This document shows, piece by piece, positions 26,294 to 63,730 of a DNA stretch of 64,000 bases (position 1 is the stretch's first letter; every line of letters begins with the position of its first letter). The DNA comes from a virus (lineage: Duplodnaviria > Heunggongvirae > Uroviricota > Caudoviricetes). Where the stretch lies: positions 9,756 through 73,755 of the IMG/VR virus record IMGVR_UViG_3300028888_000043. The stretch is one strand, 5' to 3'. Below the pieces are notes generated by a model. That model made no database searches. It was not told the origin of the DNA and worked only from the letters and a program-made list of their open reading frames with translations. The position numbers were made by a program, and so were the translations under genes.

Positions 26294-26336
26294 AAATATT
26301 TGGATATATCAGAAAAAATATGTATCTTTGTAATAG
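26294..26336 (+). promoter_or_regulatory. class-A consensus promoter (AAATATTTGG, about 20 nt, TATCTTTGTAATAG)
   Basis: Bacteroidetes -33 TTTG / -7 TAnnTTTG grammar; one of 13 near-identical copies. Confidence 0.6.
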
Positions 26337-26354
26337 GTAAACAAGACAGAAGTT

Positions 26355-26672
26355 ATGAATCTCAAATTTAAAATTGGTCAATTTATTGTTATTAAATGGA
26401 GACCTGTTGAAAATGTGTATCCTACTCCTCTCGGATTGATGTATTCTGAAAAGAATGAATCCAAATATGGTGTTTGGAGGATTGATCCTTACAAACCCGA
26501 TTATTTCAACAGTATTGACTATAAGATGCATCTGGTCCCGGTTGGTGAGTCTGCCAATATTTTCCTTCCTATGGACAGATACACTATTGATTACAATGAT
26601 TTGAAAGATGAATTCATCTTTGATGACCAGCATCTTGCTGAAAAGTTTGTAAAAGAATTTTTAACTGATTAA
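26355..26672 (+). CDS. hypothetical protein (105 aa)
   Basis: first ORF after class-A promoter. Confidence 0.5.
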   Translation: MNLKFKIGQFIVIKWRPVENVYPTPLGLMYSEKNESKYGVWRIDPYKPDYFNSIDYKMHLVPVGESANIFLPMDRYTIDYNDLKDEFIFDDQHLAEKFVKEFLTD

Positions 26673-26682
26673 ACTCTATACT

Positions 26683-26847
26683 ATGGTGTACATTTATGAA
26701 AAAAATCTCAACACTAACCAGTCCCGCTTCTATATGTCAGTTGAGAATGAGAACCAGGCAAAGAAAATGGTCCGGGAAATGAACCTTGACTCCCTCTATG
26801 ATGACAAATTCTACTTTATTGGAGAAAATCCAAAAGAAAAAGAGTAA
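26683..26847 (+). CDS. small ORF (54 aa)
   Basis: MVYIYEKNLNT...; below cutoff. Confidence 0.2.
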   Translation: MVYIYEKNLNTNQSRFYMSVENENQAKKMVREMNLDSLYDDKFYFIGENPKEKE

Positions 26848-26890
26848 AAAATTTGGAATTGTCAAAAAAATGTATTATCTTTGTAACAAG
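26846..26890 (+). promoter_or_regulatory. class-A consensus promoter
   Basis: AAAAATTTGG...TATTATCTTTGTAACAAG. Confidence 0.55.
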
Positions 26891-26910
26891 AAATAAAAAC
26901 TCATACAATT

Positions 26911-27096
26911 ATGAATGACAAGGAACTTTTTATCGAGGTATTTAACCGCTTCCAGGCCCGCCACAAGGGTCTCACCCTCTCCGGTACTCTGGTTTACTAC
27001 AACCATGACTGCAAGTTCAACATCGATGGATTCAACCTGGAGTACAATCTCCTCCGTCTCACCAGACTTCTGGATGAAGAGGGAGAGCTCCGCTAA
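26911..27096 (+). CDS. hypothetical protein (61 aa)
   Basis: ORF after promoter. Confidence 0.4.
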   Translation: MNDKELFIEVFNRFQARHKGLTLSGTLVYYNHDCKFNIDGFNLEYNLLRLTRLLDEEGELR

Positions 27097-27108
27097 TCAA
27101 TAAAGAAT

Positions 27109-27330
27109 ATGAAAACCATAAAGGTAAAAGACTCCAATGGAGTAACCCACAACTACAACCCCAAGTACATCAAAGATATACAGGAGGTTGAAAACCATCA
27201 TAACAATGAATGGTGTATCAACATCATTCTTGATGGTGAAGGAGAGCACATCAATTCCATTCTCTGTAAATCCAAAGAAGAGATGGAGACATTACGGGAT
27301 GCACTTATCTTCTGTATGGAATCTGTCTAA
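27109..27330 (+). CDS. hypothetical protein (73 aa)
   Basis: ORF. Confidence 0.4.
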   Translation: MKTIKVKDSNGVTHNYNPKYIKDIQEVENHHNNEWCINIILDGEGEHINSILCKSKEEMETLRDALIFCMESV

Positions 27331-27348
27331 CCCATAACAATCAAGACA

Positions 27349-27894
27349 ATGGGAAAGTTCTTCAAAAAACTTTTTAGAGAATACTATATTTTCACAGTCC
27401 TTGCCATTGCATTTGCAATTGCCATTGCAATTGTAGTATGGGGCATCACAATGAAACCTTATCAGCAGAAGGAAATGGAGAAACTGATTGTCTCCAATGT
27501 GGATGCCCGGGGTTTCTCTGACTTCAAGAAATATGATGTCACCTTCATCAAGGATGATGTCAAAGACAGTATCCTCTATTACAGAATGAAAACCAGCTGG
27601 GATGAGACCTTCCTGGATCTCTACCAGAATGTCTATGATGAACCTGCCAAACGGGAATACTACCAGAAGGAAGTCATCGAGGACAAGGAGAGACATGACT
27701 ACTTCAATGATATGGAAACCAACCATCCAGATTTATGGAATGAGATTGCCATCACCACTTACCGTATCAACTACCTATACACTGATGAGACTGGTAATGA
27801 CAAGATTGAAATCTGTGATGCCAAATTCAATAACAAGAATGAGATGCTGGAATACCGTATCACATCTCAATCTGACTGGGTGAAAATAAAATAA
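27349..27894 (+). CDS. membrane-anchored protein (N-terminal TM)
   Basis: IFTVLAIAFAIAIAIVVWGI helix. Confidence 0.45.
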   Translation: MGKFFKKLFREYYIFTVLAIAFAIAIAIVVWGITMKPYQQKEMEKLIVSNVDARGFSDFKKYDVTFIKDDVKDSILYYRMKTSWDETFLDLYQNVYDEPAKREYYQKEVIEDKERHDYFNDMETNHPDLWNEIAITTYRINYLYTDETGNDKIEICDAKFNNKNEMLEYRITSQSDWVKIK

Positions 27895-27901
27895 CAAGTA
27901 T

Positions 27902-29543: not shown

Positions 29544-29544
29544 T

Positions 29545-29596
29545 CTGCGATTGCGATCTGCGAAGGTGGAGATTGAAGAAATCTTCACCTTTTTTC
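29545..29596 (+). terminator. TGCGA tandem repeat (CTGCGATTGCGATCTGCGAA) plus terminator hairpin
   Basis: GGTGGAGATT-gaaga-AATCTTCACC (one G-U pair) then T6. Confidence 0.7.
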
Positions 29597-29597: not shown

Positions 29598-29642
29598 TTT
29601 TTATTTGGATATGTCATTTTTTTGTTGTATCTTTGTATCAGA
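29598..29642 (+). promoter_or_regulatory. class-A consensus promoter
   Basis: TTATTTGG...TTGTATCTTTGTATCAG. Confidence 0.55.
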
Positions 29643-29655
29643 AATAAATGAGATT

Positions 29656-29973
29656 ATGAACTACAAGATTTATCAACTTGACATCGACAATATCAATGTT
29701 CTTAGTGACCACAGACTCTTTGAGTCCTGGGATATGCTAAACAGAACATGTGGGTTCAGCAAGCACTGCTACAAGAAAGTCTATGAAGGTGAAGTCACTG
29801 CAAACACAATCGTCGGAGCGCTTGATTCCCTTTTCTGGAAATTCAATCTCAATCACCCTGAAGACTTCCATGGTCACTCCCTGTCTGTATCTGATGTGGT
29901 TGAATTGGATGGAGTCTGGTATTATTGTGACTCCATTGGCTGGGTGAACATCAAAACAGAAGAAAAACTATAA
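29656..29973 (+). CDS. hypothetical protein (105 aa)
   Basis: start trimmed to first ATG after promoter (track ORF extends back over dam). Confidence 0.45.
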   Translation: MNYKIYQLDIDNINVLSDHRLFESWDMLNRTCGFSKHCYKKVYEGEVTANTIVGALDSLFWKFNLNHPEDFHGHSLSVSDVVELDGVWYYCDSIGWVNIKTEEKL

Positions 29974-30016
29974 AAATATTTGGATATACCAATTATTTGT
30001 ATTATCTTTGTAACAG
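29973..30016 (+). promoter_or_regulatory. class-A consensus promoter
   Basis: AAAATATTTGG...TATTATCTTTGTAACAG. Confidence 0.55.
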
Positions 30017-30031
30017 AATCAGAAACAGTAT

Positions 30032-30415
30032 ATGAAAACTAACGAACAGTTACTCAATGAGATTTATTCTCATTTCCCCGAGTCTGAAGACAAGAATGAG
30101 ACTCTTTGCAGTCTTATCACTGACTCCCTGGCCGCCATCGGTTATTGGAACACCAAGGATCCTGAACCGGAAGATCAGACCAAGTACTACTGGGAGGACC
30201 GCATCTGGGAAGATGTGAAGGCAGGTAAGTCTCTTACCTTCGGTGATGAGGACAATCATGGTGAACTCAACCTGGCGAACATCGCCAAGGCACTCAACAT
30301 CATCAAGAAACATGACCCTGACACCTATGAAGACATCCAGAATGAAGACTGGGATGCAGATTCCTGCGATGTCTTCTTCCAGATTGCTGTCTTCGGGGAA
30401 GTGGTATTCGGTTAA
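30032..30415 (+). CDS. hypothetical acidic protein (127 aa)
   Basis: ORF after promoter. Confidence 0.45.
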   Translation: MKTNEQLLNEIYSHFPESEDKNETLCSLITDSLAAIGYWNTKDPEPEDQTKYYWEDRIWEDVKAGKSLTFGDEDNHGELNLANIAKALNIIKKHDPDTYEDIQNEDWDADSCDVFFQIAVFGEVVFG

Positions 30416-30433
30416 ACTCAAAACAACAAGACA

Positions 30434-30928
30434 ATGAAACCAATCAAGTTATCAATCAAGTCAGTAGTACTTATCATCTCTCTGACAATCAACATCTTCA
30501 GTGCATTCTATCTCAGGAATGCCAAGTCACCGGAGACCATCCAAGCAGAAGCGGAACTTCTTGCCCAGGCAGACACCCTTTCTGAGTGGGACATCTTCAC
30601 CCTTGCCCTGATGAAGGTGGAGTCAGAATATGACAACAGTGCAGTCTCATCTGTTGGTGCAAGAGGATACTTCCAGATGACTCCCATCTATGTCAAGGAG
30701 GTAAACCGAGTCCACAATACCAACTACACCTTTGACCAGGTGACTGACTTTGACACTGCCTATGAGATTTTCGACCTTATGCAGCAGGCCCACAATCCCA
30801 ATTACAATCTGGACAAGGCACTGGAACTCCATAATGGGAAGCATGCCTGGTACAACCGCCGGGTATATAAGGAGATGAAGAATATCCAGCAGTATGAAGA
30901 AATGAGAAACAAAGTTAAGAATATTTGA
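30434..30928 (+). CDS. lytic transglycosylase (SLT domain) with N-terminal signal/anchor; endolysin candidate
   Basis: ALMKVESEYDNSAVSSVGARGYFQMTP matches the SLT catalytic motif ES...S.AGA.GLMQ. Confidence 0.7.
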   Translation: MKPIKLSIKSVVLIISLTINIFSAFYLRNAKSPETIQAEAELLAQADTLSEWDIFTLALMKVESEYDNSAVSSVGARGYFQMTPIYVKEVNRVHNTNYTFDQVTDFDTAYEIFDLMQQAHNPNYNLDKALELHNGKHAWYNRRVYKEMKNIQQYEEMRNKVKNI

Positions 30929-30930
30929 TT

Positions 30931-31176
30931 ATGAAAAAGTTCATTATTCTCCTCGCCCTCTCCATCATACTCTCAAGTTGCGGAGTCACCTATTACACCT
31001 ACTATGAGGTGGATGATGTGGACAAGGCCAACACAATCTCCAAGCAGGATGCCGAGTGGTCTCAAAGACATATCTCACCGTCACGAGTGATCGCAGCATA
31101 CACAGACTCCACCGGACATATGGTCTATCTCATTGAGACCAAGATCTATGACACCGGTAAAATTGATTATGAATAA
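30931..31176 (+). CDS. small lipoprotein (o-spanin-like position)
   Basis: signal peptide plus lipobox ILSSCG immediately downstream of the lysin gene; ATG start (track start 30925 is TTG). Confidence 0.5.
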   Translation: MKKFIILLALSIILSSCGVTYYTYYEVDDVDKANTISKQDAEWSQRHISPSRVIAAYTDSTGHMVYLIETKIYDTGKIDYE

Positions 31177-31191
31177 AAATCCAATACAGTC

Positions 31192-31377
31192 ATGATTTAC
31201 AAATTAGTTATCGGCGCCATTCTGTTGGCCACCATCCTTTACTATTTCTTCTGCTTTATGGAGATTTTTGGTGCAATCAAGTTCACGGACAAGAACACCA
31301 CCATCAAGATTCCACAGATGTTCATCCCCTTCTACTACCTTATCCACAGTGATAAGCCCAAGTCCAATGAAAAGTAA
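31192..31377 (+). CDS. small membrane protein (holin / i-spanin candidate)
   Basis: 61 aa, N-terminal TM helix, charged C-terminus. Confidence 0.45.
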   Translation: MIYKLVIGAILLATILYYFFCFMEIFGAIKFTDKNTTIKIPQMFIPFYYLIHSDKPKSNEK

Positions 31378-31415
31378 AACCAATCAATAATTTTTTAATT
31401 TAACCCTTTTTAATT

Positions 31416-32600
31416 ATGTTTGAATTAAGCAAAGGCAAAGTCATTGCCATTATCACCGGCATTTTCGTCATCATCGTCCTCGCCCTTATGGGAAGTGCAG
31501 CGGAGGATGTGAAGAACGAGCAGATTGTCATCAACCAGTACCCTTTCTCCGGAAAGATGGCATACTGGACCGAGCCAGGCATGCACTGGCAGGGATTCGG
31601 TCGCAAGACTGAGTACTACAAGACCCAGCAGTTCTGGTTTGGAGGTAAGGATGTGGACGGTGAGTCCCATGGTAACCCCATCAAGGTCATTTTCAATGAT
31701 GCTTCCGTCGGTTACATCTATGGATCCCTCCGAGTCATCCTCCCTACCGATACCGAGCACCTGAAACTCATCCAGACAGCATACACGGGTATGGACCGTC
31801 TTATGAATGACCTGGTTGCCCAGAATGTTGTGAAAGTCATCTATGCTTCCGGACCTCTGATGTCGGCATTTGAGTCCTATGCAGAGAAGAAGAATGATAT
31901 GGTGTTCTATATTACCGACCAGTTGACCTATGGTGTGTACAAGACCACAGTCCGTGAGGAGGATACTGTCGATTCCTTCACTGGTGAAGTCAAGAAGGTC
32001 AAGGTTGCGTCCCTGGTACAGAATGAAGATGCTCCTAATGGTTATGTGCGTTCAGAGAAGTCTCCTTTCTCCTCCTATGGTGTGATTATCGACCAGGTGT
32101 CCATCACTGAAATCACTTATGATGAGAAGGTAACCCAGCAGATCCAGACACAGCAGCAGGCCAATATGTCTATCCAGACCAAGAAGGCAGAGGCCCTTGC
32201 CGCCCAGCAGGATGCCATCAAGGCAGAGGCAGAAGGTAAGGCTGCTGCCGCCAAGGCCAAGTGGGAACAGGAGAAGGTGAAGGCAACCGAGGTGACCAAG
32301 GCTGAACAGGAACGGGAAGTTGCCCGCCTGGCAGCAGAGAAGGCAGAGTTTGACAAGAAGAAGATTATTGCCGAGGGTGAAGCGGAGGCGGCTGCCAACC
32401 GTGCGAAGGTCTCCGCTGGTCTGACTCCTCAGGAACGTGCAGAGTGGGAATACAAGACCAAGGTTGGTGTCGCTGACGCTCTTGCCAAGACCAACTGGCC
32501 GAAGATTGTGATGAGTGGAGGTAATGGAGGTGCATCCGGCGCACTGGATGTCATCACCCTGGAGAGGATGAATGCACTTGTCAAGAGTATGTCTGACTAA
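31416..32600 (+). CDS. SPFH/band-7 (HflK/C-, prohibitin-like) membrane protein
   Basis: N-terminal TM, central SPFH-like region, A/E/K-rich coiled coil at C-terminus; C-biased codon usage. Confidence 0.55.
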   Translation: MFELSKGKVIAIITGIFVIIVLALMGSAAEDVKNEQIVINQYPFSGKMAYWTEPGMHWQGFGRKTEYYKTQQFWFGGKDVDGESHGNPIKVIFNDASVGYIYGSLRVILPTDTEHLKLIQTAYTGMDRLMNDLVAQNVVKVIYASGPLMSAFESYAEKKNDMVFYITDQLTYGVYKTTVREEDTVDSFTGEVKKVKVASLVQNEDAPNGYVRSEKSPFSSYGVIIDQVSITEITYDEKVTQQIQTQQQANMSIQTKKAEALAAQQDAIKAEAEGKAAAAKAKWEQEKVKATEVTKAEQEREVARLAAEKAEFDKKKIIAEGEAEAAANRAKVSAGLTPQERAEWEYKTKVGVADALAKTNWPKIVMSGGNGGASGALDVITLERMNALVKSMSD

Positions 32601-32617
32601 ACACTATGAAAAGAAAA

Positions 32618-32654
32618 ATGTGGCATGCAGGTTACTGTGTGCCACATTTTTTTA
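32618..32654 (+). terminator. Rho-independent terminator
   Basis: ATGTGGCA-loop-TGCCACAT then T7. Confidence 0.65.
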
Positions 32655-32690
32655 TGTATTGCCATAAATATTTTTATATAATTATAAGTT

Positions 32691-35072
32691 ATGGCAGATA
32701 CAATATCATATATAAAAATTGGAAATCAAACACATCCAATAGATGCAGTGACAGTCAATGGTATAACCATCTCACAACAAGAAAAGAACACATGGAATTC
32801 AAAACAAAATGCATTATCCTTTGACTCAATCCCTACAGAGAACTCTAACAACCTGGTGAAGTCAGGTGACCTCTACACTGTCATAGTTGACAATGAGGAG
32901 GTGACAGCAGCTGCTCTCAATGACCTCAATGACAGGATGATAAATGTGGAGAATGGTATGGTAACTGAAGAATATGACCCTGTATTCTCCTCATCTGCTG
33001 CTGCATCAATCACATCAGCCAACATCTCCAACTGGAACAGTAAGACCAGTAACACTGGTACCCTCACTGGTATCTCTATGAATGGGGTGAGTAAAGGTAC
33101 AAGCGGTAACATCAATCTTGGTACTGTCGTCACAGGTATAACTTTCAATGGTTCAAATGTATCTGTAAGTAAAGGTGTAGCAGCAATTAGTGTTTCTATC
33201 CCTGCCGCAGTGACATCAAATACAGTAGCAGGTTGGGGATTTACCAAAAATTCTGCACCTGGAACACTGACAACAACTGCAACTACATCTTTGTCAACTG
33301 CAACCAATGAGGCATTATCTGGGAACATCAGTCTCCACAAGATTGCCAAGACTGGTACTTATTCGGACCTGGTTGGAAAACCAGACCTACCAATGGCTGC
33401 TTACTTCAATCCTGCCAATGAGACTATGTATTTCTTCAAGTCAACAGCAGACAGGGATTCATTTGTGGCAAATAGAACACAAACAAGTCTGGTAATGTTT
33501 TCAACACAGATGTCACCATATATCAAGTTTAAAGACCCGAATGTTTTATCAGTCTTACTTACAAAAAACATAGGTGATGGTGTCGGAATAACTGAAACAC
33601 AGGCAGCCGCCGTTACAAGTATGAATAATGTTTTTGACGGCAATACAGGCATCAGTACCTTTGATGAGGGAGAGTATTTCACGGGATCTGACAGTTGGGC
33701 CAGTGCTTTCCGCAACTCAACTGTCACAAGGGTAAAACTTCCGATGGGTCTCCGCACAACCAATGCCTCTGGAGCATGGTCATATATGTTCTATGGATGT
33801 ACATCGTTGCAGGAGATTAATTTTGCTGATATGCAAAGAGGTACAGAGGCAGCACAGGCTGCACAATTCCAATGGTTTACTGGTTGCTCCACTCTTACAA
33901 CAATCAGTTTTGACAATATTGAGCAGATTTGTAAGTTTGTACCTACACGTTATCTTTTGTCAGATGTTCCATTTGGCTATAATACTAACACTCACCTTGT
34001 CAACTTGAATGGTCACGAACTCATAAATGTGGTTATTCCTTCAACCATTACTTCGATACGACCTTGCACCTTCTATCGTTTTAATAGGATTGTTTCTGTA
34101 ACAAACATAGCATCTGTGACAACAATAGGTCAATATGCATTCTACCAATGTACATCACTTACAACTGTTACAGAACCCACATCTTTAACAACAATAGAAC
34201 CATATACATTCAGTCAATGTACCAGTCTAAAATCAATATCCTTACCAGTGGCAACAACTATTGGTAACTGTGCATTCAATCAATGTACCAGTCTTTCTTG
34301 TGATTTGCCATTACCAGTGGCAACAACTATTGGAAAATATGCATTTTATCAGTGTCCTATTACAAATCTATCATTACCTGTTATTGAGACAATAGGTGAA
34401 TATGCATTTAGTGATTGTACTGAAATCACTTCCCTCACATTACCTTCAACAATAACAACAATAGGTAATGGTGCATTCAAGGGGTGTTCAAAATTAGTTA
34501 ATGTAACAATAAACAACAGTGTAAATTGTGGAAGAGATTGTTTTGTATCATCAGGAACAGGAGAAGGTACATTTACAATAAATGGTAATTATACAGAAAC
34601 TGTAGGAAGTTCATATAACAGACTTGGTTATTACAAACATTACAATATCACTGGGGATTTAAGTTCATGGACTACATATTGGACATTTGATTCAAAGTTT
34701 GAAACAATCAGAATAGGTGGTAATATAATTGGACAAAATACAACTGCATGTGTATTCAGAGATAGTAGTTATAGTCAAAAATTAAAATTTTTTGAATTGA
34801 TGGGAACATCCAACATCAATTTATGTTCTGCATTTCCACAATCAATTGAAAGTGGATTCATAGCTCACTTTGGATATAGTGATATTGCTATGACAGCAGC
34901 ACAAGCACATATATCTGATTCAAAGTTCTCAAAACTATATGTTGGTGATGGAACATCTGCTGCTGCCGATCAAGCAGTATTGAATAAATATCTTGCTGAT
35001 TCCACTTGGTCTCCATACTCATCAAAATTAGATCTCTGGTATAATTACACAGGTACATACAAAACCAGTTAA
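32691..35072 (+). CDS. tail fibre / receptor-binding protein with C-terminal BspA-type leucine-rich repeats
   Basis: N-terminal module shared with next gene; repeated xTxIGxxAFxxCxSLxxI(S/T)LP units near C-terminus. Confidence 0.6.
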   Translation: MADTISYIKIGNQTHPIDAVTVNGITISQQEKNTWNSKQNALSFDSIPTENSNNLVKSGDLYTVIVDNEEVTAAALNDLNDRMINVENGMVTEEYDPVFSSSAAASITSANISNWNSKTSNTGTLTGISMNGVSKGTSGNINLGTVVTGITFNGSNVSVSKGVAAISVSIPAAVTSNTVAGWGFTKNSAPGTLTTTATTSLSTATNEALSGNISLHKIAKTGTYSDLVGKPDLPMAAYFNPANETMYFFKSTADRDSFVANRTQTSLVMFSTQMSPYIKFKDPNVLSVLLTKNIGDGVGITETQAAAVTSMNNVFDGNTGISTFDEGEYFTGSDSWASAFRNSTVTRVKLPMGLRTTNASGAWSYMFYGCTSLQEINFADMQRGTEAAQAAQFQWFTGCSTLTTISFDNIEQICKFVPTRYLLSDVPFGYNTNTHLVNLNGHELINVVIPSTITSIRPCTFYRFNRIVSVTNIASVTTIGQYAFYQCTSLTTVTEPTSLTTIEPYTFSQCTSLKSISLPVATTIGNCAFNQCTSLSCDLPLPVATTIGKYAFYQCPITNLSLPVIETIGEYAFSDCTEITSLTLPSTITTIGNGAFKGCSKLVNVTINNSVNCGRDCFVSSGTGEGTFTINGNYTETVGSSYNRLGYYKHYNITGDLSSWTTYWTFDSKFETIRIGGNIIGQNTTACVFRDSSYSQKLKFFELMGTSNINLCSAFPQSIESGFIAHFGYSDIAMTAAQAHISDSKFSKLYVGDGTSAAADQAVLNKYLADSTWSPYSSKLDLWYNYTGTYKTS

Positions 35073-35077
35073 CTGAA

Positions 35078-35112
35078 AAAGACTCACCAACAAGTGAGTC
35101 TTTCTTTTATTT
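35078..35112 (+). terminator. Rho-independent terminator
   Basis: AAAGACTCAC-caacaa-GTGAGTCTTT then CTTTTATTT. Confidence 0.6.
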
Positions 35113-35163
35113 GTCATTCCCCATAAATACCTATATAGTATCAGAAAACTAATTCTAAACAAT

Positions 35164-37656: not shown

Positions 37657-37658
37657 TA

Positions 37659-38441: not shown

Positions 38442-38467
38442 ATAATTATATTATAAGTGATTAACCA

Positions 38468-42793: not shown

Positions 42794-42848
42794 CTGCGAT
42801 TGCGATATGCGAATTGGTCCGTCCATCTGGGCGGATCAATTTTTTTTG
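42794..42848 (+). terminator. TGCGA repeat (CTGCGATTGCGATATGCGAA) plus terminator hairpin plus T8
   Basis: TTGGTCCGTCC-atct-GGGCGGATCAA (2 G-U pairs) then T8 then GTAAAAAAGTG. Confidence 0.7.
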
Positions 42849-42859: not shown

Positions 42860-42906
42860 AAAAAAAATTTGGTAGTCTCGTTTTTTTGTTGTATCTTCGT
42901 ATCAGG
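42860..42906 (+). promoter_or_regulatory. class-A consensus promoter (variant -7 TATCTTCG)
   Basis: AAAAAAATTTGG...TTGTATCTTCGTATCAG. Confidence 0.5.
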
Positions 42907-42926
42907 AAATAAAAAGAACAGATATT

Positions 42927-47718: not shown

Positions 47719-49195
47719 CATCTGTAATTGCATAAATCTTTTTCTTATATGAACTCCAACCAGCAGCGGCCTTATAAGCATCCACAGATTCTGCTGGAAC
47801 ATAGTAGCCACTCACCATATACCATTGAGAACCATTTCCAGTCGCTTCCCTTGTAGGAGGAGTAGTTGCAAGACATACCACCTTGAGACCATTTGCAGCA
47901 TACTGACCTGATCTATCACCGATATATGTCAAAGTAGAAGGGAAGACAATGTACTGACAGACCTCATTGTTCTTGTCATACCAGGGACAGACCTGTGTGT
48001 ATGCACCATTGTCCATCTTTGCCATAAAATCCCTGAACGATCCGGCCATCAGTTTGGTGACACCTTCCGCTATCTTGACTACATTCTGCTTTGACAGACC
48101 ATAATCAGCACCGCCATAACAGATAGTTCCATCCTTGGAGTAGACAATGTTGTTGACTGCTTTGAAGTTTGGATTGTTTTCATCTATGGTGATGGTCTCA
48201 AGCATATCCCAGAAGACGTCATTGTATTGACCGGTATAATCTGCGCCATTACCCAGTGTCTGAAGTCTTTCACCAATGTGTATCTCTCTCGGTGAAAATT
48301 GATTTGAAAACACTTCTTCACCAAACAACATCAATCTTGGAAGGTTCAATATCTCCTGGAATTTACCTGGATATGTATCATAGATATTGGAAAATGCGCC
48401 GTGACCTATATATGTAAGAGTATCCGGGAGTAATTGAGTACCTCCTGGAATACCTGATGTCTGGGCATATCCTATACTTGAACCAGCAAAAGCATAATTC
48501 TGGATAACATTCAATCCCTGGTTCATATTCACATGGGACAATTCACCACAGAAGGCGAACGCCTGTACGCTCACCTGCTTCAGTGTGGACGGGAAGGTAA
48601 TCTCCTTCAGTTTGCTGTTCCTGAAACAGTAGTTTCCGATTATCATCATACTTGGAGGAAGAGTTATACTCTCAAGGTCATATGCACCGAAGAATCCACC
48701 CTGCTTGGCTGCCTGTTCTTCATATGTGGTGTCTGTGAAAGTGGTCTTCGTGACATTCACAAAGAACTGGAACTCATCAAAATGCTTCAGGTTGGCAAAA
48801 GTGAGAGACCTGTAACCTCCAGGTGTGGATGAATCCGACACAAGTATGTTGGCTGCATTGAATGAATCATTTGTAACAGCAATCGCCTGGTCAATGGTCA
48901 TGAATGTGTCTGTCTGTCCCACCCAACCGGCATTCCTGGCGATTTCCATCGCTTCCGGGTTGGACTGGTTGGTCATTATCTTCCTGTAGAAGATTTTCTT
49001 CTTCCATTTTTCTGTGTCTGTCGTCTTCAATGTACACAAAGTAGGATAGTTCACCGGGTTTTCCGAGACATCTTGGATGTATTCATCCACTGTATTGTAT
49101 TCTTTTAAATACTTCATAACATAATAGTCCTTTATATTATTTATGACCTTTCTGCGAATCTGCGACTGCGATATGCGATAGACTGAAATCCACAT
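47696..49195 (-). CDS. BspA-type leucine-rich-repeat protein (499 aa), minus strand
   Basis: repeated I(G/Q)NYAF..C..L..I.(L/F)P units (ITLPPSMMIIGNYCFRNSKLKEITFPSTLKQV...); both ORF ends lie inside TGCGA-repeat elements. Confidence 0.55.
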   Translation of the reverse strand: MWISVYRISQSQIRRKVINNIKDYYVMKYLKEYNTVDEYIQDVSENPVNYPTLCTLKTTDTEKWKKKIFYRKIMTNQSNPEAMEIARNAGWVGQTDTFMTIDQAIAVTNDSFNAANILVSDSSTPGGYRSLTFANLKHFDEFQFFVNVTKTTFTDTTYEEQAAKQGGFFGAYDLESITLPPSMMIIGNYCFRNSKLKEITFPSTLKQVSVQAFAFCGELSHVNMNQGLNVIQNYAFAGSSIGYAQTSGIPGGTQLLPDTLTYIGHGAFSNIYDTYPGKFQEILNLPRLMLFGEEVFSNQFSPREIHIGERLQTLGNGADYTGQYNDVFWDMLETITIDENNPNFKAVNNIVYSKDGTICYGGADYGLSKQNVVKIAEGVTKLMAGSFRDFMAKMDNGAYTQVCPWYDKNNEVCQYIVFPSTLTYIGDRSGQYAANGLKVVCLATTPPTREATGNGSQWYMVSGYYVPAESVDAYKAAAGWSSYKKKIYAITDEILAAIA

Positions 49196-49228: not shown

Positions 49229-49274
49229 AAGAAATATTTGGCGGTCTCGTTTTTTCTTTGTATCTTTGTAACAG
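49229..49274 (+). promoter_or_regulatory. class-A consensus promoter
   Basis: GAAATATTTGG...TTGTATCTTTGTAACAG. Confidence 0.55.
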
Positions 49275-49293
49275 AAACAAGAGAGATACTGAA

Positions 49294-49446: not shown

Positions 49447-49457
49447 AAAAAAGGCAA

Positions 49458-49501
49458 GAAATATTTGGATATTACAGAAAAAAGTATTATCTTTGTAATA
49501 G
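49458..49501 (+). promoter_or_regulatory. class-A consensus promoter
   Basis: GAAATATTTGGATAT...TATTATCTTTGTAATAG. Confidence 0.55.
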
Positions 49502-49517
49502 AAAAAGAGACATAACC

Positions 49518-49739: not shown

Positions 49740-49752
49740 AAATACAGATACC

Positions 49753-50331: not shown

Positions 50332-50336
50332 GAGAT

Positions 50337-50908: not shown

Positions 50909-50934
50909 TTAGTTTAACCCCTAAAATATTTAAT

Positions 50935-51540: not shown

Positions 51541-51542
51541 TC

Positions 51543-51603
51543 TTCTGCGGTCACGAACTGCGAATACCAGGGGACTGAAAAAAAGTGGAAAAAAGTCCCC
51601 TGG
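51543..51603 (+). terminator. degenerate TGCGA element plus long-loop hairpin overlapping the -33 region
   Basis: CCAGGGGACT-16 nt-AGTCCCCTGG; no T-run. Confidence 0.4.
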
Positions 51604-51645
51604 AAATTTGGAAAATCCGGAAAAAAGCATTATCTTTGTAACAGA
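51601..51645 (+). promoter_or_regulatory. class-A consensus promoter
   Basis: GGAAATTTGG...GCATTATCTTTGTAACAG. Confidence 0.5.
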
Positions 51646-51760
51646 AAGGAAGACATAAAGGTTCATACCGCAACAATCGCCAAAAGATGTTAAAGTAAAC
51701 AAGAAACCCTTTGGAACCTTGTTAACTATCTTCCTAATGAACCAAAAAAGAGTAACAGTC

Positions 51761-52009: not shown

Positions 52010-52029
52010 ATCATCAAAAGGAGAAAGAT

Positions 52030-52572: not shown

Positions 52573-52633
52573 ATTTATGATTTATGAATTGCAAATCGCT
52601 ATAAATACTGTATACAATCAAATCCAGTAAACT

Positions 52634-53017: not shown

Positions 53018-53052
53018 TAACAATTGTTGTTAACCTTTAAAATCTTTAAAAC

Positions 53053-53298
53053 ATGCGCAAGTACAAGTCTATCCGCACCATCCTGCTGGACTTCGTGGCG
53101 AACAATGGTCCGCAGACCTGGAATGAACTCCACAAGGTTGTCCTCACTGTCGCCGGTCAGCCTCTGACCCGCAACGAGTATGGCAGCTCCTACCTTGACC
53201 AGGTATCCGAGGGCACTTCCGTCTGCTTCCCGACCCGCACCGAGCGCCGCTACCTCTACAAGCGAGAGGACGGTCTCTATGACATCGCCAGTCTGTAA
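53053..53298 (+). CDS. hypothetical protein (81 aa) with markedly GC-rich codon usage
   Basis: about 57 percent GC versus about 40 percent surroundings; strong terminator downstream. Confidence 0.5.
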   Translation: MRKYKSIRTILLDFVANNGPQTWNELHKVVLTVAGQPLTRNEYGSSYLDQVSEGTSVCFPTRTERRYLYKREDGLYDIASL

Positions 53299-53327
53299 AA
53301 CCCAGACAAACAGGTGCAAAAAAATCG

Positions 53328-53366
53328 TCACCAGGATGTAAATCCTGGTGATTTTTGTTATATTTA
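53328..53366 (+). terminator. Rho-independent terminator plus class-B element
   Basis: TCACCAGGAT-gtaa-ATCCTGGTGA then T5 then GTTATATTTAATG. Confidence 0.75.
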
Positions 53367-53398
53367 ATGTGTAAGTAATTCTAATAGAAAGTAAAAGT

Positions 53399-54010
53399 AT
53401 GGATAAACTCAATTATGCCCTTGGTCTTTATGTGGGGACATATATGGTAAGAGGAGGAATCGAGAAGGTTGATTCCGTTGATGATTTTATGGCAGGTATC
53501 AACACTGTCCTCAACGATACGGATCTCGCAATCCCGCAGGAGGAGGTGAATGAGACTCTCAAGTCCTTCTTTGGTGAGGTTCTCAGGAAGAGGGAAGAGC
53601 AGGAAAAGAAGGAAGCCGCGGAGAATCTCAAGAGAGGTGAGGAGTATCTCAAAGAGAACCTCACCAAAGAAGGCGTGAAGAAGACCGACTCCGGACTCCA
53701 GTACAAGATCCTCCGGGAAGGAACTCTGATGAAATGGCCTAACGCCCACAGCAGAGTGAGAGTCCACTATGAGGGCAAGTTCATTGACGGTACAGTGTTC
53801 GACTCCTCCTACCAGCGTGGAGAACCAGTCGAATTCGGACTGGACCAGGTGATCCCTGGGTGGTCAGAGGGTGTATGCCTGATGAAACCTGGAGCGAAGT
53901 ATGAACTCACATTGCCGGCACATCTGGCATATGGTGAAGTGGGTGTCCCCGACAGGATTCCTGGGAACAGTGTCCTGATTTTCACTGTTGAACTCCTTGA
54001 CATCCTGTAA
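53399..54010 (+). CDS. FKBP-type peptidyl-prolyl cis-trans isomerase (FkpA/Mip-like)
   Basis: GLQYKILREG..P.....V.VHYEGKFIDGTVFDSSYQRGEPVEFGLDQVIPGWSEG...PGAKYELTLPAHLAYG. Confidence 0.85.
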   Translation: MDKLNYALGLYVGTYMVRGGIEKVDSVDDFMAGINTVLNDTDLAIPQEEVNETLKSFFGEVLRKREEQEKKEAAENLKRGEEYLKENLTKEGVKKTDSGLQYKILREGTLMKWPNAHSRVRVHYEGKFIDGTVFDSSYQRGEPVEFGLDQVIPGWSEGVCLMKPGAKYELTLPAHLAYGEVGVPDRIPGNSVLIFTVELLDIL

Positions 54011-54012
54011 CT

Positions 54013-54441
54013 ATGGAAATCAAGATCAATATTGATGAGTCCAAGTTCCAGGAAGTCCTGGAAAAGGAACTCGGAGCATTCACCCAGGATGAACTCCATA
54101 AAATCCTTGTTGAGGCAATGAAGGAGTACCTCAACAAAGAGGATGTCATCAAGGCATACCTGGAAAAGAATGAGGTGGATAGATGGGGATCACCGGTAAG
54201 AGGATCCAGTACTATGGATAAACTCATCCAGAATGTAGATCTGAATGATGTCCTGGCAGAACCAAAGGAGAAAATCAAGAAGATTATCTCTGAAAATAGT
54301 ACTTTGAAGAATGTGGCCATAGAACTCCTGGCAAATATGTTCAAAAGTAATTTCAGGAATGCCTTCATCCAGGATTACCAGTTTATGGAAGAACTTGCGG
54401 GAAGAGTAGCATACTCGCTTGAACAGATGAAGCAGAGATGA
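54013..54441 (+). CDS. hypothetical protein (142 aa)
   Basis: ORF. Confidence 0.45.
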   Translation: MEIKINIDESKFQEVLEKELGAFTQDELHKILVEAMKEYLNKEDVIKAYLEKNEVDRWGSPVRGSSTMDKLIQNVDLNDVLAEPKEKIKKIISENSTLKNVAIELLANMFKSNFRNAFIQDYQFMEELAGRVAYSLEQMKQR

Positions 54442-54454
54442 GTCTGATGTAATG

Positions 54455-54545
54455 TCCTGAAACCGTAGACGACGTAGACACCGTATACGGTATACGTGTA
54501 TACGTGTATACTGAAGTAGACTGAAGTCCAGAGACCTGGACAGAA
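54455..54545. repeat. array of short palindromic/direct repeats (CGTAGACGA CGTAGACAC CCGTATACGG TATACGTG TATACGTG; TGAAGTAGAC TGAAGTCCAG; GTCCAG-agac-CTGGAC)
   Basis: read directly; replaces the usual hairpin in the inter-unit cassette. Confidence 0.6.
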
Positions 54546-54626
54546 TGTCAGGATATGAAATCCACTGACGACCATCTGCCATCTGCGACGACGAACTGCG
54601 AAAGAAAGATTTTTGAAAAAATGTGA

Positions 54627-54670
54627 GAAATATTTGGATATGTCGTTTTTTTGTAGTATCTTTGTAATAG
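54627..54670 (+). promoter_or_regulatory. class-A consensus promoter
   Basis: GAGAAATATTTGGATAT...GTAGTATCTTTGTAATAG. Confidence 0.55.
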
Positions 54671-54698
54671 AAAAAGAAACCAACAGAAAAACAAAGAC

Positions 54699-54953
54699 AT
54701 GAAACTCATTGCTGACATTTTCAACTACATCCTCCTTACCGGAGCGTTCCTTTTTGCAGTGGCGCTTTTCATCCAGACGAACAGAGAACTCTGGGAGAAC
54801 TTCAAGGAAGACTATGGTGACTGGTTCAAGAGCACCAGAATCGGGATGTGGTTCAACAACAGGAAGAATGGAGTAACCATCCTCACAGACGATGAATATG
54901 AGAATCTCCAAATGACTGGAAAGATTATTCCCATTGAAGTTGTGGAGGATTAA
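54699..54953 (+). CDS. small membrane protein (84 aa)
   Basis: TM helix LLTGAFLFAVALFI. Confidence 0.45.
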   Translation: MKLIADIFNYILLTGAFLFAVALFIQTNRELWENFKEDYGDWFKSTRIGMWFNNRKNGVTILTDDEYENLQMTGKIIPIEVVED

Positions 54954-57840: not shown

Positions 57841-57900
57841 TGCGACGGCGACCTGCGATTGACTGAAATCCGGGCGAACTGCAATTTTTTTTGAAAAAAA
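57841..57900 (+). terminator. TGCGA element plus GACTGAAATCC plus T8 (hairpin degenerate)
   Basis: CTGCGACGGCGACCTGCGATTGACTGAAATCC...AATTTTTTTTG. Confidence 0.35.
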
Positions 57901-57904: not shown

Positions 57905-57948
57905 AAAAAATTTGGTAAATCAAAAAAATTGTTGTACCTTTGTAGTGG
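57905..57948 (+). promoter_or_regulatory. class-A consensus promoter (variant -7 TACCTTTG)
   Basis: AAAAAAATTTGG...TTGTACCTTTGTAGTGG. Confidence 0.5.
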
Positions 57949-58001
57949 GGAAAGGAAAGAATCCCAAACAGAAAGTTTAACAACAGAAAACACAGAATAC
58001 C

Positions 58002-58568
58002 ATGAAAGCAGTCAAACTCAGCAAGATTAATTGGAATCTTGATAGCGTTAAGAAAGAAGACAGAGAGAAAGTCCTTGCCACCCTCCCCAAGTTCAAGGGA
58101 TTTATGGCAGCAGATGACTTCAATGTGATAGAGAAAGTTCCGGCTCTCCTTGAAAAGAAATACGGATACAGTGTCTTCACCTATTCCTATGTGGAACTCC
58201 GGGTAGTCGACAATGTTGAGGATCTTCTCCTCCTCTGCAACCCCAAGGGTGAGAAACCCAAGAAACTCTTCCTCAAGAATGGAGAACTCTCCGCCTATGG
58301 TGAAGAGATGGTGAAATCCCTTGAATCCAACATCAAGCAGAGACTCCGCCTTGAATTCAGAGGAACTCCTGTGGAGAGCATGCCCACCCTCCTGGATGAG
58401 ATCCAGATTGGTGTAGAGAAGATCACAGGTATGAACTGGGAGAAGCACACCGTTGAGGAGTTGATGTCCCCCATTATGAACAAGATTCGCTTTGCCAAGG
58501 CCGCCAACCTGGTTGACAAGTATGGTGAAGACATCTCCGATGAGGAGGAGTATGGGGACGAGGACTAA
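58002..58568 (+). CDS. hypothetical protein with acidic C-terminal tail (DEEEYGDED), C-biased codons
   Basis: ORF after promoter; antisense ORF 57780-58670 rejected. Confidence 0.5.
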   Translation: MKAVKLSKINWNLDSVKKEDREKVLATLPKFKGFMAADDFNVIEKVPALLEKKYGYSVFTYSYVELRVVDNVEDLLLLCNPKGEKPKKLFLKNGELSAYGEEMVKSLESNIKQRLRLEFRGTPVESMPTLLDEIQIGVEKITGMNWEKHTVEELMSPIMNKIRFAKAANLVDKYGEDISDEEEYGDED

Positions 58569-61515: not shown

Positions 61516-61568
61516 CTGCGATTGCGACTTGCGAATGATGGATTATCGTCCATCATTTTTTTTGTAAA
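61516..61568 (+). terminator. TGCGA repeat (CTGCGATTGCGACTTGCGAA) plus hairpin plus T8 plus GTAAAAAGGTG
   Basis: AATGATGGA-ttatcg-TCCATCATT then T8. Confidence 0.7.
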
Positions 61569-61576: not shown

Positions 61577-61620
61577 GAAATATTTGGTGGATTCAAAAAA
61601 AAGTTGTATCTTTGTAATAG
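61577..61620 (+). promoter_or_regulatory. class-A consensus promoter
   Basis: GAAATATTTGG...TTGTATCTTTGTAATAG. Confidence 0.55.
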
Positions 61621-61662
61621 GAAAAGAGAACAACGGATTTTTAACGATAAACTATAACAGCA

Positions 61663-61863
61663 ATGAAAAAGAAAGAACTTGACAGCTGGTTCAACAGTCT
61701 GGACACCTTTGAGCTGGGACTGATGTTTCCCGGTGAATATGAGGAAACCCTGGAATCCGCCGAACCCGGAGTAAACATCAACACCTTTGTCAGGGAAGTG
61801 AAGGCGATGTGGAAGAATCTCTCCCTGGAAGAGAAAGTGGAACTCTATGAGCAGTACAAGTAA
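61663..61863 (+). CDS. hypothetical protein (66 aa), MKKKELDSWFN family, copy 1
   Basis: first 33 nt identical to next gene. Confidence 0.45.
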   Translation: MKKKELDSWFNSLDTFELGLMFPGEYEETLESAEPGVNINTFVREVKAMWKNLSLEEKVELYEQYK

Positions 61864-61864
61864 T

Positions 61865-62050
61865 ATGAAAAAGAAAGAACTTGACAGCTGGTTCAATCTG
61901 GACCCAGATGGCAAGTACATCCACTATCAGACCTGGAATCAGGAGCACCCTGTGGCGCTCCGTTTCGGGTTTACTGAAATCGCTATGACCAAGGAGAACC
62001 TTGAAGAACTCAAGAAAGAAATCAATGAAGCACTTAAACACATCAAGTAA
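61865..62050 (+). CDS. hypothetical protein (61 aa), MKKKELDSWFN family, copy 2
   Basis: tandem paralog; start trimmed to ATG after upstream stop. Confidence 0.45.
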   Translation: MKKKELDSWFNLDPDGKYIHYQTWNQEHPVALRFGFTEIAMTKENLEELKKEINEALKHIK

Positions 62051-62051
62051 T

Positions 62052-62504
62052 ATGAAAAGACTCACCATCATTGCGGTCATCGTCATCGCAGTAATGTCCA
62101 TCCCCTATTGGGTGATGAGACCGACCATCAAGAGAATCAACATCCACCAGCAGACCAAGACAGAGTGCATGAAGTATCAGATGCAATACTCTGCGCTGTC
62201 CCCGACCAAGGCATATGATCAGGAGAACTATCTCCAGCAGTCATATGAAATCTACTGCGGGCTGTGTGACATCCTGATGAGAATCAAGTCAGATGATGAA
62301 TCTGTCTATCTCAAGGAATCCATCAGGTATTCCCTGGATGAGATCTTCCAGGACCAGGTGGCATCCATCAAATCATTAGATGACATCCTGTTGCAATCCA
62401 AGTACATCAGAGATATCCTGTCCAAGGAGATGGAACTCCTCCATCAGGTTGGTGACCAGTATGAGGAGATGGCGATGGATGAATTGAGGAGGATGAACAT
62501 ATGA
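62052..62504 (+). CDS. membrane-anchored protein (150 aa)
   Basis: N-terminal TM LTIIAVIVIAVMSIPYWV. Confidence 0.45.
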   Translation: MKRLTIIAVIVIAVMSIPYWVMRPTIKRINIHQQTKTECMKYQMQYSALSPTKAYDQENYLQQSYEIYCGLCDILMRIKSDDESVYLKESIRYSLDEIFQDQVASIKSLDDILLQSKYIRDILSKEMELLHQVGDQYEEMAMDELRRMNI

Positions 62505-63010
62505 ACCAGCAGAATCAGTTAAAGGAACACAACCGGTGGTGGGACTTCTCCACTCCAGTGTGGGTGGGAATCGCCTTCATCATTTTCTGCATTGAGATGG
62601 CGATAGTCGCAATGACTACTGTGGCAAGAAACCAGGAATCCCGTATAGAACTCCGGACATCATCCCAGTTGTCATATGACCCGAATGACTACTTCCAACC
62701 GGATGGTGGAACAAAGATGGTCTACTGGAGAGTGAAGCAGTCTGAAGTCCCCAGATGGAAGAGACCGACCAACAGGTGGCACAAGCTCAAGTATGCCTAC
62801 CCCTTCAAGAGATGGAACAGACAGGATGCAATTATGAGGGATGACTACACTGTCGAGGAATACCTGGAACTCAAGAAGAATCTCCTGACAGTGGGTGATG
62901 TCAGGAGATATCAGAAGAGGCAGGAAAAGATCTACCGGAAGAACAACCAGAAGGAAATAGAGAAGGCAAAGATAAAGCATGCCAAGAAGATGTGGGATGA
63001 TGTGGGATAA
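62501..63010 (+). CDS. membrane protein (169 aa)
   Basis: TM helix VWVGIAFIIFCIEMAIVAM; basic C-terminus. Confidence 0.45.
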   Translation: MNQQNQLKEHNRWWDFSTPVWVGIAFIIFCIEMAIVAMTTVARNQESRIELRTSSQLSYDPNDYFQPDGGTKMVYWRVKQSEVPRWKRPTNRWHKLKYAYPFKRWNRQDAIMRDDYTVEEYLELKKNLLTVGDVRRYQKRQEKIYRKNNQKEIEKAKIKHAKKMWDDVG

Positions 63011-63033
63011 TGTGGAATGACATTGTGCGATTG

Positions 63034-63057
63034 CGATTTGCGAATATGAAATCCGCT
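63034..63057 (+). repeat. TGCGA tandem-repeat element (GTGCGATTGCGATTTGCGAA) plus GAAATCC
   Basis: no clear hairpin here. Confidence 0.5.
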
Positions 63058-63069
63058 GAAAAAACCTAA

Positions 63070-63113
63070 AATAAATTTGGTGGAATCAAATCTTTTTTGT
63101 ATCTTTGTAATAG
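63070..63113 (+). promoter_or_regulatory. class-A consensus promoter
   Basis: AAATTTGG...TTGTATCTTTGTAATAG. Confidence 0.55.
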
Positions 63114-63140
63114 AAAAGGAAACCAATAAAACACAGAGAT

Positions 63141-63686
63141 ATGAAAACCCAGGTCCGCAACAGTTTCATCAAGTCCCTTGCAGATGTCATTGACAAGTAT
63201 GTTTACACTTGTGACCTTTTCAATGGAGGGTGCTGCTACTCCGCCTATGTACTGGCCAAGGTTCTGAAGCAGGCCGGAATCAAATACAAGGTGAAGATGT
63301 TTCAGTACAAGGATGTCCTGAAAGTCAATGAGTTCAATACCGCCATCAACGGTAATGGTGTAGCTCATGTCGCCATCGCAGTCAGACAGGACAAGGAATG
63401 GAAAGTGTTCGGTTCCTGTGATGGTATCTACAATCACTTCGCTTTCACCGGTGAGGCATTCAAAATCAGGACATACAGCAACATCACTCCGGAGCAGCTG
63501 CTTGAAGGATATGAGAACAATGATTGGAACAGTATGTATGACACCGAGAACAACAAGAGTCTGGTAAAGGAAATCAACAAGGTGGCGTCCAAGTACATCA
63601 GCGTTGACAAGAAAGCGGTCAAGGTGGTCATCAAGCACAATGAGTTAGACATCTTCAAGCAGATTGTTAATCTCATCTTTGGATAA
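63141..63686 (+). CDS. hypothetical protein (181 aa)
   Basis: ORF after promoter. Confidence 0.5.
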   Translation: MKTQVRNSFIKSLADVIDKYVYTCDLFNGGCCYSAYVLAKVLKQAGIKYKVKMFQYKDVLKVNEFNTAINGNGVAHVAIAVRQDKEWKVFGSCDGIYNHFAFTGEAFKIRTYSNITPEQLLEGYENNDWNSMYDTENNKSLVKEINKVASKYISVDKKAVKVVIKHNELDIFKQIVNLIFG

Positions 63687-63730
63687 AAAATATTTGGATA
63701 TTCCAGAAAAAAACATTATAATTGTAATAG
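63687..63730 (+). promoter_or_regulatory. class-A consensus promoter (variant -7 TATAATTG)
   Basis: AAATATTTGGATAT...CATTATAATTGTAATAG. Confidence 0.45.

Follow-up and report, generated by a model that had tools for sequence, protein, structure and literature searches.

A large uncultured phage (Caudoviricetes; IMG/VR record IMGVR_UViG_3300028888_000043) carries, in the 64,000-nt stretch of its DNA analysed here (positions 9,756 to 73,755 of the record, hereafter the window), a family of sixteen extended intergenic sites that we designate class A. The best explanation for these sites, and a probable one, is that the host primary sigma factor, the sigma-A of the Bacteroidota (sigma-ABfr type), uses them as promoters. 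In kind the element is ordinary and already known, i.e., it is the normal Bacteroidales promoter, present in near-perfect copies. We infer initiation by host sigma-A, the exact start sites, high strength and early timing from the features described below.

The bare core, TTTG-N17-23-TAnnTTTG, has 17 matches in the window against 1.96 expected, a number reached by none of 100 shuffled sequences, and the downstream 17-mer TATCTTTGTAATAGAAA, with up to three mismatches allowed, has 16 matches against 0.28 expected. A 55-nt position weight matrix derived from the sites and scanned over both strands yields exactly 16 class A sites, which score 39.6 to 65.7 bits and are all on the plus strand. Every other position, on either strand, scores 8 bits or less, and shuffled sequence never rises above 0. 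Thirteen of the sites lie within 26294-63730, the first and the last of them forming the two ends of that interval, and their -33 TTTG elements start at 26299, 26852, 29604, 29979, 42868, 49237, 49464, 51607, 54633, 57911, 61583, 63076 and 63693; the matrix thus recovers, at the same coordinates, the thirteen plus-strand copies listed in a first-pass annotation of this DNA. Three further sites, weaker and more divergent, have their TTTG at 8410, 11101 and 18235 and were outside that set. The common strand follows from gene orientation, because nearly all genes in the window are on the plus strand. Individual promoters are named below by the position of their TTTG. A scan of the window for E. 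coli-type -35/-10 pairs gave 32 sites against 33 expected, i.e., a sigma-70-type signal of that form is absent.

Anatomy of the class A sites

The literature consensus for the Bacteroidota promoter consists of a -33 TTTG and a -7 TAnnTTTG separated by an AT-rich spacer of about 19-21 nt (PMC7366714). In class A the TTTG and a gap of 20 nt between TTTG and TA are found in 16 of 16 sites, while the -7 box is exact in 14 and has a single mismatch at 42868 (TATCTTCG) and 63693 (TATAATTG). The spacer is AT-rich and bears an A-tract or a T-tract, and its sequence varies among the copies accordingly. Since the -7 box of Bacteroidota sigma-A occupies positions -12 to -5 relative to the start (PMC9723704), the predicted +1 falls on position 36 of the site, where all sixteen sites have a purine (A in 14, G in 2) with a pyrimidine just before it. 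Upstream, the consensus comprises an A-rich stretch at about -51 to -48, another at -41 to -37, and TTTGG at -36 to -32; the 19-nt spacer that follows reads wwwwkTC, with TC at -25/-24, then an A- or T-tract and G/T. The -7 element itself is TATCTTTG at -12 to -5, followed by TAAY at -4 to -1, A at +1, and GAAA. Over the 16 sites, the ten classical core positions hold about 17.6 bits of information and the positions outside the core about 33.6 bits. Both the match to the Bacteroidetes sigma-A core and the conservation well beyond the minimal consensus, as claimed at first pass, are therefore upheld, the former also by the intergenic position, the orientation and the nearness to an ATG described next.

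All sixteen sites are intergenic and on the same strand as the next gene, and the predicted 5' untranslated region measures 16-31 nt in 12 cases and 44-94 nt in the other four. These leaders are short, purine-rich and without a Shine-Dalgarno sequence. Genome-wide, a Shine-Dalgarno-like tetramer precedes just 13 of 106 genes, and A is enriched at -14/-13, an enrichment which has been described before start codons in the Bacteroidota. The first genes are mostly small and of no known function (50-105 amino acids, aa, in 10 of 16). Rfam searches at gathering thresholds and a tRNA search both returned zero matches in the window, so that no known RNA family accounts for the conserved leaders and cassettes.

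Host preferences and the reading of class A

The host can be approached through the distribution of the extended pattern, which in bacterial genomes matches at least 120 loci. Among the 80 titled matches, tallied by eye over the printed titles, 66 are from Bacteroidota, mostly Bacteroidales, with Prevotella/Prevotellaceae as the largest group. Together with genes that lack Shine-Dalgarno sequences, this bears out the proposed host phylum: assignment to the Bacteroidota is supported, and the host probably belongs to the Bacteroidales. An uncultured phage is thereby given a host group, and sixteen transcription units are delimited, from sequence alone.

The first-pass annotation had taken the extra conservation to imply added recognition determinants, such as an activator or an UP-like A-tract. 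In order to compare the phage sites with host promoters, 860 kb of Bacteroidales-rich genome loci were taken as a host sample, each locus having been picked because it contains one extended match, and a host matrix was built from 105 other sites in these loci, chosen by the bare core only. The core pattern occurs 229 times in these loci and 4 times in shuffled sequence. The 105 host sites prefer an A-rich -5 to -1, G after TTTG (0.60), T-T-C at spacer positions 8-11, an A tract followed by a T tract, TC within the -7 box, and C/T-A following its G. Scored on the host matrix at non-core positions, the phage sites reach +22.1 bits and the host sites themselves +17.5, compared with -22 for random window DNA and -9.7 for the same bases with positions shuffled, i.e., the phage sites match the host recognition elements better than typical host promoters do. 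Because the phage sites share the host promoters' own preferences, an activator need not be invoked, and the idea that the extra conservation calls for an activator-type determinant is not sustained. The A-rich tract is indeed present, but it is a host-wide feature rather than something added by the phage. The extension beyond the core is thus essentially the host optimum.

What the host preferences leave unaccounted for is AYAGA(AA) around +1, the family-specific part, which we tentatively interpret as discriminator, start-site and leader sequence. In other respects class A is like the Bacteroidota sigma-ABfr promoters, having both elements 20 nt apart, an AT-rich spacer and the -7 box at -12 to -5, and it shares with Bacteroidales promoters the A-rich upstream stretch, TTTGG, the spacer TC, TATC, and YA after G. 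It differs from the average host promoter in lying nearer the optimum, in always having TA and never CA after the -7 box, and in bearing AYAGAAA around the start site.

Further occurrences of the extended pattern agree with these comparisons. The form ATTTGG-N19-TATCTTTGTA matches at least 120 viral contigs, and several unrelated Bacteroidota phage contigs bear dense co-oriented families of their own, with upstream AAATAAA, TTTGG, spacer TC and TATCTTTGTA. In host genomes, the same extended promoter is found ahead of genes for abundant RNAs: it lies 14 nt upstream of the Bacteroidales-1 (6S-like) RNA gene (Rfam RF01693) in two cases, from Parabacteroides and Phocaeicola genomes (L139 1357-1587 and L170 7599-7820), and 6-25 nt ahead of tRNA 5' ends. 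The short -33/-7 consensus understates the apparent preference of Bacteroidales RNA polymerase, for which the phage copies and the host sample together give an optimum of about 45 nt. Strong promoters for Bacteroides or Prevotella engineering could be designed from it, or it could be used as a search matrix. According to PMC7591464, a B. fragilis phage-derived promoter is about 70-fold stronger than the 16S rRNA promoter, and strong phage-derived Bacteroides promoters are already in use as tools. In the description given there of P_BfP1E6 (Whitaker et al. 2017, via PMC7591464), class A has a counterpart in phage promoters that are read by Bacteroides RNA polymerase and beat strong host promoters; by the same description, P_BfP1E6 differs in coming from a small B. 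fragilis phage outside this clade.

Class A would accordingly act as a set of 'über' host promoters, in which nearly every non-core position bears the Bacteroidales-preferred base, so that they would compete strongly for the host RNA polymerase without a phage factor. Each would head a co-oriented transcription unit, several of these being a single small gene of unknown function. One unit encodes a phage sigma factor, and for this reason the family would most likely stand at the head of a cascade, as its first and host-dependent (early) tier. Candidate signals for the later tiers are TTGTTATATTTA, which is extended -10-like, and CCATAAATA.

The sigma factor is a sigma-70-family protein encoded at 43764-44588 on the plus strand (274 aa from ATG, or 293 aa from a TTG at 43707), as the second gene behind promoter 42868. 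It matches Pfam Sigma70_r2 (2e-13), weakly Sigma70_r4, and PHROG 351 'RNA polymerase sigma factor' (4e-36). It also aligns over its full length with RpoS and SigA structures (regions 2-4), and its best NCBIfam matches are RpoS, RpoD and RpoH, all far below the family cut-offs. The family to which it belongs counts 1670 metagenomic homologues, about 270-296 aa long. Relatives share the gene order around it, in which Dam methylase, SLT and SPFH genes are followed by sigma, two WYL_2 genes and FKBP. The gene is behind a class A promoter in the window and in the related contigs L353 and L354, the L353 and L354 proteins being 96% and 52% identical, respectively, to that of the window.

This protein offers another way of reading class A, in which the phage sigma mimics or replaces host sigma-A and the sites form a middle or late regulon. 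The presence of a full-length factor with regions 2-4, belonging to a conserved family, would suit such a role, as would its short length of about 275 aa. The primary sigma of the Bacteroidota is also unusually short. We nevertheless regard the proposal as improbable. The sites fit host preferences at essentially every informative position, so that the host holoenzyme should bind them anyway, and a promoter belonging to a phage sigma should differ from the host consensus, whereas class A is indistinguishable from the host optimum. In three divergent relatives the sigma gene itself is behind a class A promoter, and the factor would then have to bootstrap its own synthesis unless it enters the cell along with the injected DNA. 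The family matches to RpoS, RpoD and RpoH, distant as they are, also speak against it.

A better candidate for the target of the phage sigma is the second intergenic motif, TTGTTATATTTA, which a distant relative retains at an orthologous position. Five exact copies are found in the window where 0.015 are expected, all on the plus strand and directly after terminator hairpins (5862, 28664, 46962, 53355 and 59781), along with three copies that have one mismatch (1567, 10677 and 16556); the motif is also present in the related contigs L004, L021, L002, L353 and L354. The motif resembles an extended -10 element (TGnTATATT, of the TGnTATAAT kind). In L354, the distant relative, it is kept before the FKBP gene beside an unrelated hairpin. 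At 5862 and 28664 an ATG follows 7-8 nt past the hexamer, and the mRNAs at these two sites could be leaderless.

The third intergenic motif, CCATAAATA, has four exact plus-strand copies against 0.59 expected (32662, 35121, 40889 and 59817), with weaker statistics than the other motifs, and one-mismatch copies at 52599, 5378 and 38436. The large genes of 793, 830 and 628 aa and the gene at 59880 have it 4-54 nt ahead of their ATG, and the motif resembles the T4 late promoter, TATAAATA.

The timing of class A is a separate matter. Several points weigh against an early, host-driven regulon of strong promoters. In the B. fragilis phage Bf12P1, -7/-33 promoters are predicted for the early, middle and late modules alike (PMC13139388), and a host-type promoter alone therefore does not mean 'early'. 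Class A promoters also head long operons with genes for DNA and nucleotide metabolism. Start sites, strength and timing are predictions made for an uncultured phage, and the host sample is taxonomically non-random, its loci having been preselected for one extended match. The conserved TAAYAGAAA may serve a further function in promoter escape, as a translation leader or as a regulator site, and the phage's own RpoS/RpoD-like sigma could in principle overlap class A in specificity.

Class A might then consist of general-purpose host-type promoters, active all through infection and defining no early regulon, as the Bf12P1 predictions would suggest. Beside tiny unknown genes, the class A units do include Dam methylase, transglycosylase, thymidine kinase, RNA-repair and large leucine-rich repeat (LRR) genes. 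Among the window genes no virion genes were recognised, hence no late block visibly without class A; the functions that were recognised are helicase, thymidine kinase, Dam-type methylase, RNA-repair proteins, NUDIX, FKBP, BspA-type LRR proteins and similar. On the other hand, the phage sigma and the two additional conserved motif classes point to more than one transcription programme, and the architecture parallels the T4 early regions in its many very strong promoters, single small unknown genes and terminators. We therefore hold promoters of infection-long activity to be rather unlikely, if by no means far-fetched.

T4 early promoters combine an excellent match to all host elements with an additional consensus (PMC2988021). 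Class A is like these 'über' UP/-35/TGn/-10 promoters in comprising many near-consensus host promoters with extra conserved positions and A-rich upstream sequence, which head short units of small genes, and in T4 the later tiers are directed by phage-encoded factors. It is unlike them in that the host consensus is that of the Bacteroidota rather than sigma-70, that timing and strength are deduced, and that a later tier may use a full-length phage sigma; homologues of Alt, AsiA and MotA did not come up, no search having been aimed at them. The label 'immediate-early' is plausible for the regulon.

The RCGR triple and the terminator-promoter cassettes

A second conserved element accompanies many of the promoters. 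The triple RCGR-N2-RCGR-N3-RCGR (units YKRCGR; e.g., GCGATTGCGATCTGCGA) occurs ten times in the window against 0.01 expected, nine of the copies being on the plus strand. Nine class A promoters are preceded by a triple and seven have none directly upstream. The triple starts 2-17 nt past the stop codon of the preceding gene, 5' of the terminator hairpins, and is 35-108 nt upstream of the -33 box. Five of the nine plus-strand triples are succeeded by a strong intrinsic terminator, an A-rich GTAAAAAAGTG-like sequence and the promoter, in that order. Promoters 29604, 42868, 49237 and 61583 each have a strong hairpin with a U-run upstream, and another terminator is at 25940. Most class A units end at an intrinsic terminator just 5' of the next promoter, the whole cassette measuring about 100-130 nt.

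The plus-strand triples are arranged as follows. That at 25919..25935 is between the stop of the gene 25401-25913 and the terminator 25940-25963. Upstream of promoter 29604, the copy at 29547..29563 begins 2 nt past the stop at 29543 and adjoins the terminator 29563-29591. Triples at 42796..42812 and 61518..61534 are followed by terminators with a T8 run (42814-42839 and 61534-61557) and then by promoters 42868 and 61583, respectively. At 49162..49178, where a fourth unit extends the triple from 49154, the terminator 49186-49212 and promoter 49237 come next. The triple at 51547..51563 (GCGGTCACGAACTGCGA) precedes a hairpin without a U-run (51567-51603) and promoter 51607; this promoter is unusual in that the 10-bp GC-rich hairpin (CCAGGGGACT...AGTCCCCTGG) stops at -41 and overlaps the upstream A-rich position. 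Promoters 54633 and 57911 have triples at 54585..54601, with no strong hairpin, and at 57842..57858. Upstream of promoter 63076, the triple at 63027..63043 (GAAATCCGCTGAAAAAA) represents a hairpin-less form of the cassette. The only minus-strand copy in the window is at 58586.

The association is maintained in relatives. A metagenome scan gave 105 fragments, of which 38 can be aligned to the window at 65-93% identity. Scanned over 553 kb from relatives, the matrix gives 269 sites, and these are co-oriented in 106 of 108 loci. Of 240 promoters, 110 have a triple in the 110 nt upstream, compared with a frequency of 2.25% among 110-nt background windows. Successive units are spaced by 6 and then by 7 nt in 110 of 117 cases, and 139 triples are on the promoter strand versus 23 on the opposite strand. 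Per 100 kb, triples number 0.23 in host loci, 1.0 in other Bacteroidota phage loci, about 16 in the window and about 33 in relatives, densities by which an element derived from the host, or general to Bacteroidota phages, is rejected. The triple is also less likely to be an upstream activator site, given its variable distance of 35-108 nt to the -33 box and its position 5' of the terminator hairpin.

We tentatively suggest that triple, (usually) terminator and über-promoter make up a clade-specific regulatory cassette that bounds exchangeable modules, the triple being bound by a multimeric phage protein, and that with the sigma factor and TTGTTATATTTA it may belong to a complete, undescribed temporal programme. 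As a guess, the binding protein might be one of the two Sm-like WYL_2 proteins, and it could set the balance between termination and read-through or turn the early units off. If this is true, the triple cassette would be a regulatory unit of an uncultured Bacteroidales phage family, several members of which are on contigs of more than 200 kb, similar in role to the PeSL elements of T4. The more open side of the system is formed by the clade-specific triple, the two additional motif classes and the phage sigma, which together make the temporal programme testable.

In T4-like phages, PeSL (promoter-early stem-loop) cassettes mediate modular shuffling (PMC2839356, PMC4122927). The cassettes described here are similarly composed of a terminator and an early-type promoter, are repeated between small variable genes, mostly without a known function, in plastic regions, and are accompanied by insertion, deletion and swapping of the intervening genes among relatives. 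They differ in having no sequence relationship to PeSL, in the additional RCGR triple, and in that only some of the insertion or deletion breakpoints are at cassette edges.

Compared with the window, close relatives show insertions, deletions and swaps of small genes. Both insertions in L263 (93% identical) are at cassette edges, as is one of three changes in L317 (92-95% identical), and in L304 the gene 26355-26672 is at another location. Ahead of the orthologue of the gene at 63141, 10 of 13 relatives keep the promoter almost unchanged although their proteins are only about 50% identical, while in the other three the cassette is missing and the gene directly follows another gene. L263 also has, in its region 5525-6955, an extra BspA-type LRR gene on the minus strand, exactly between the equivalents of the window's stop codon at 63010 and the cassette at 63027 (window region 63005-63022), which mirrors the minus-strand LRR gene of the window (region 47696-49195) adjoining the cassette at 49162. 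This suggests that LRR gene and cassette move as a unit.

Such mobility raises the question of whether the similarity of the class A sites comes mainly from the recent spread of a dispersed repeat, i.e., a mobile or recombining cassette, and not from selection on each copy as a promoter. The larger cassette shared by nine copies (RCGR triple, hairpin, GTAAAAAAGTG and promoter) and the differences among relatives in which cassettes and intervening genes have been gained or lost would be expected from such a spread. Yet the conservation is position-specific and tracks host preferences while the spacer varies between A-tract and T-tract types. Moreover, the seven copies without a triple directly upstream, the correct spacing and orientation of all copies ahead of an ATG, and the near invariance of promoters across relatives with proteins only about 50% identical make spread as the main cause very improbable. 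Cassette spread and promoter function are mutually compatible.

Transcription units and genome relatives

The three sites outside the main interval are towards the 5' end of the window. Promoter 8410 (8405..8450, 43.3 bits), a weaker copy with the -7 box TATGTTTG, has a predicted start at 8446 and a leader of 22 nt before the open reading frame (ORF) 8468-8695 (75 aa). Promoter 11101 (11096..11141, 49.8 bits; start 11137) has a 16-nt leader before 11153-11353 (66 aa). The weakest copy (TATATTTG), promoter 18235 (18230..18275, 39.6 bits; start 18271), precedes 18287-19084, a 265-aa product matching PHROG 10081 'transposase'.

Between 26 and 43 kb, promoter 26299 (26294..26339, 56.5 bits; start 26335) is followed by the ORF 26355-26672 (105 aa), and promoter 26852 (26847..26892, 54.7 bits; start 26888) by one beginning at 26911 or 26915 and ending at 27103 (about 61 aa). 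Promoter 29604 (29599..29644, 55.7 bits; start 29640), which has a T-tract spacer, precedes the YodL-like gene 29656-29973 (105 aa). Directly after this gene, promoter 29979 (29974..30019, 58.3 bits; start 30015) heads a 13-kb unit, 30032-42788, which holds SLT, SPFH, BspA-LRR and large unknown genes. Promoter 42868 (42863..42908, 48.4 bits; start 42904) has 42927-43691 as its first ORF, then the sigma gene.

Farther downstream, promoter 49237 (49232..49277, 52.6 bits; start 49273) precedes the 50-aa ORF 49294-49446, and promoter 49464 (49459..49504, 65.7 bits; start 49500), the best match to the family consensus, precedes 49518-49739 (73 aa). The 94-nt leader of promoter 51607 (51602..51647, 48.1 bits; start 51643) leads to a WYL_2 gene at 51737-52009. 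Promoters 54633 (54628..54673, 63.8 bits; start 54669) and 57911 (TACCTTTG; 57906..57951, 50.9 bits; start 57947) have as first ORFs 54699-54953 (84 aa) and 58002-58568 (188 aa), respectively. The last three are promoter 61583 (61578..61623, 63.5 bits; start 61619), before 61663-61863 (66 aa); promoter 63076 (63071..63116, 55.0 bits; start 63112), before 63141-63686 (181 aa); and promoter 63693 (63688..63733, 44.6 bits; start 63729), whose first ORF runs from 63760 past the end of the window.

Thirteen genes in the window have a common N-terminus of about 20 residues, MS(I/V)WxD(I/M)H(K/R)RSNG..(R/K)(K/R)ED, and unrelated C-terminal parts (55-173 aa). They are at 19502, 19696, 19865, 45820, 46188, 46411, 50672, 52634, 56138, 56374, 57014, 57187 and 57371, 1-3.5 kb downstream of class A promoters and not directly behind them. 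The common N-terminus could be a targeting or interaction tag.

A megablast search with 30-50 kb against isolated phages gave no match, and the best protein relative of the window helicase, 33.5% identical, is from a crAss-like phage. IMG/VR holds relatives in the form of contigs of 233-380 kb, among which IMGVR_UViG_3300021387_000661 (344,746 bp) shows synteny with the window over 53.9-63.8 kb, at 65-75% nucleotide identity. Two class A-like promoters of 44 and 50 bits, about 940 nt apart, were also found in L207 (JBGVNW010000068.1, 360,293 bp), which is labelled as a Bacilli metagenome-assembled genome and may be a mis-binned large Bacteroidota phage or another foreign contig.

Unusual auxiliary genes are present at 1-26000 and 49000-54500. 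They include an IMPDH/GMP-reductase fragment, an M42 aminopeptidase, thymidine kinase, a Thg1-like tRNA-His guanylyltransferase and RlaP, together with HAD_SAK_2, R2K ATP-grasp proteins, an RNA ligase, NUDIX, an HD domain, GmrSD_N, FKBP, a formate/nitrite transporter and phosphoheptose isomerase.

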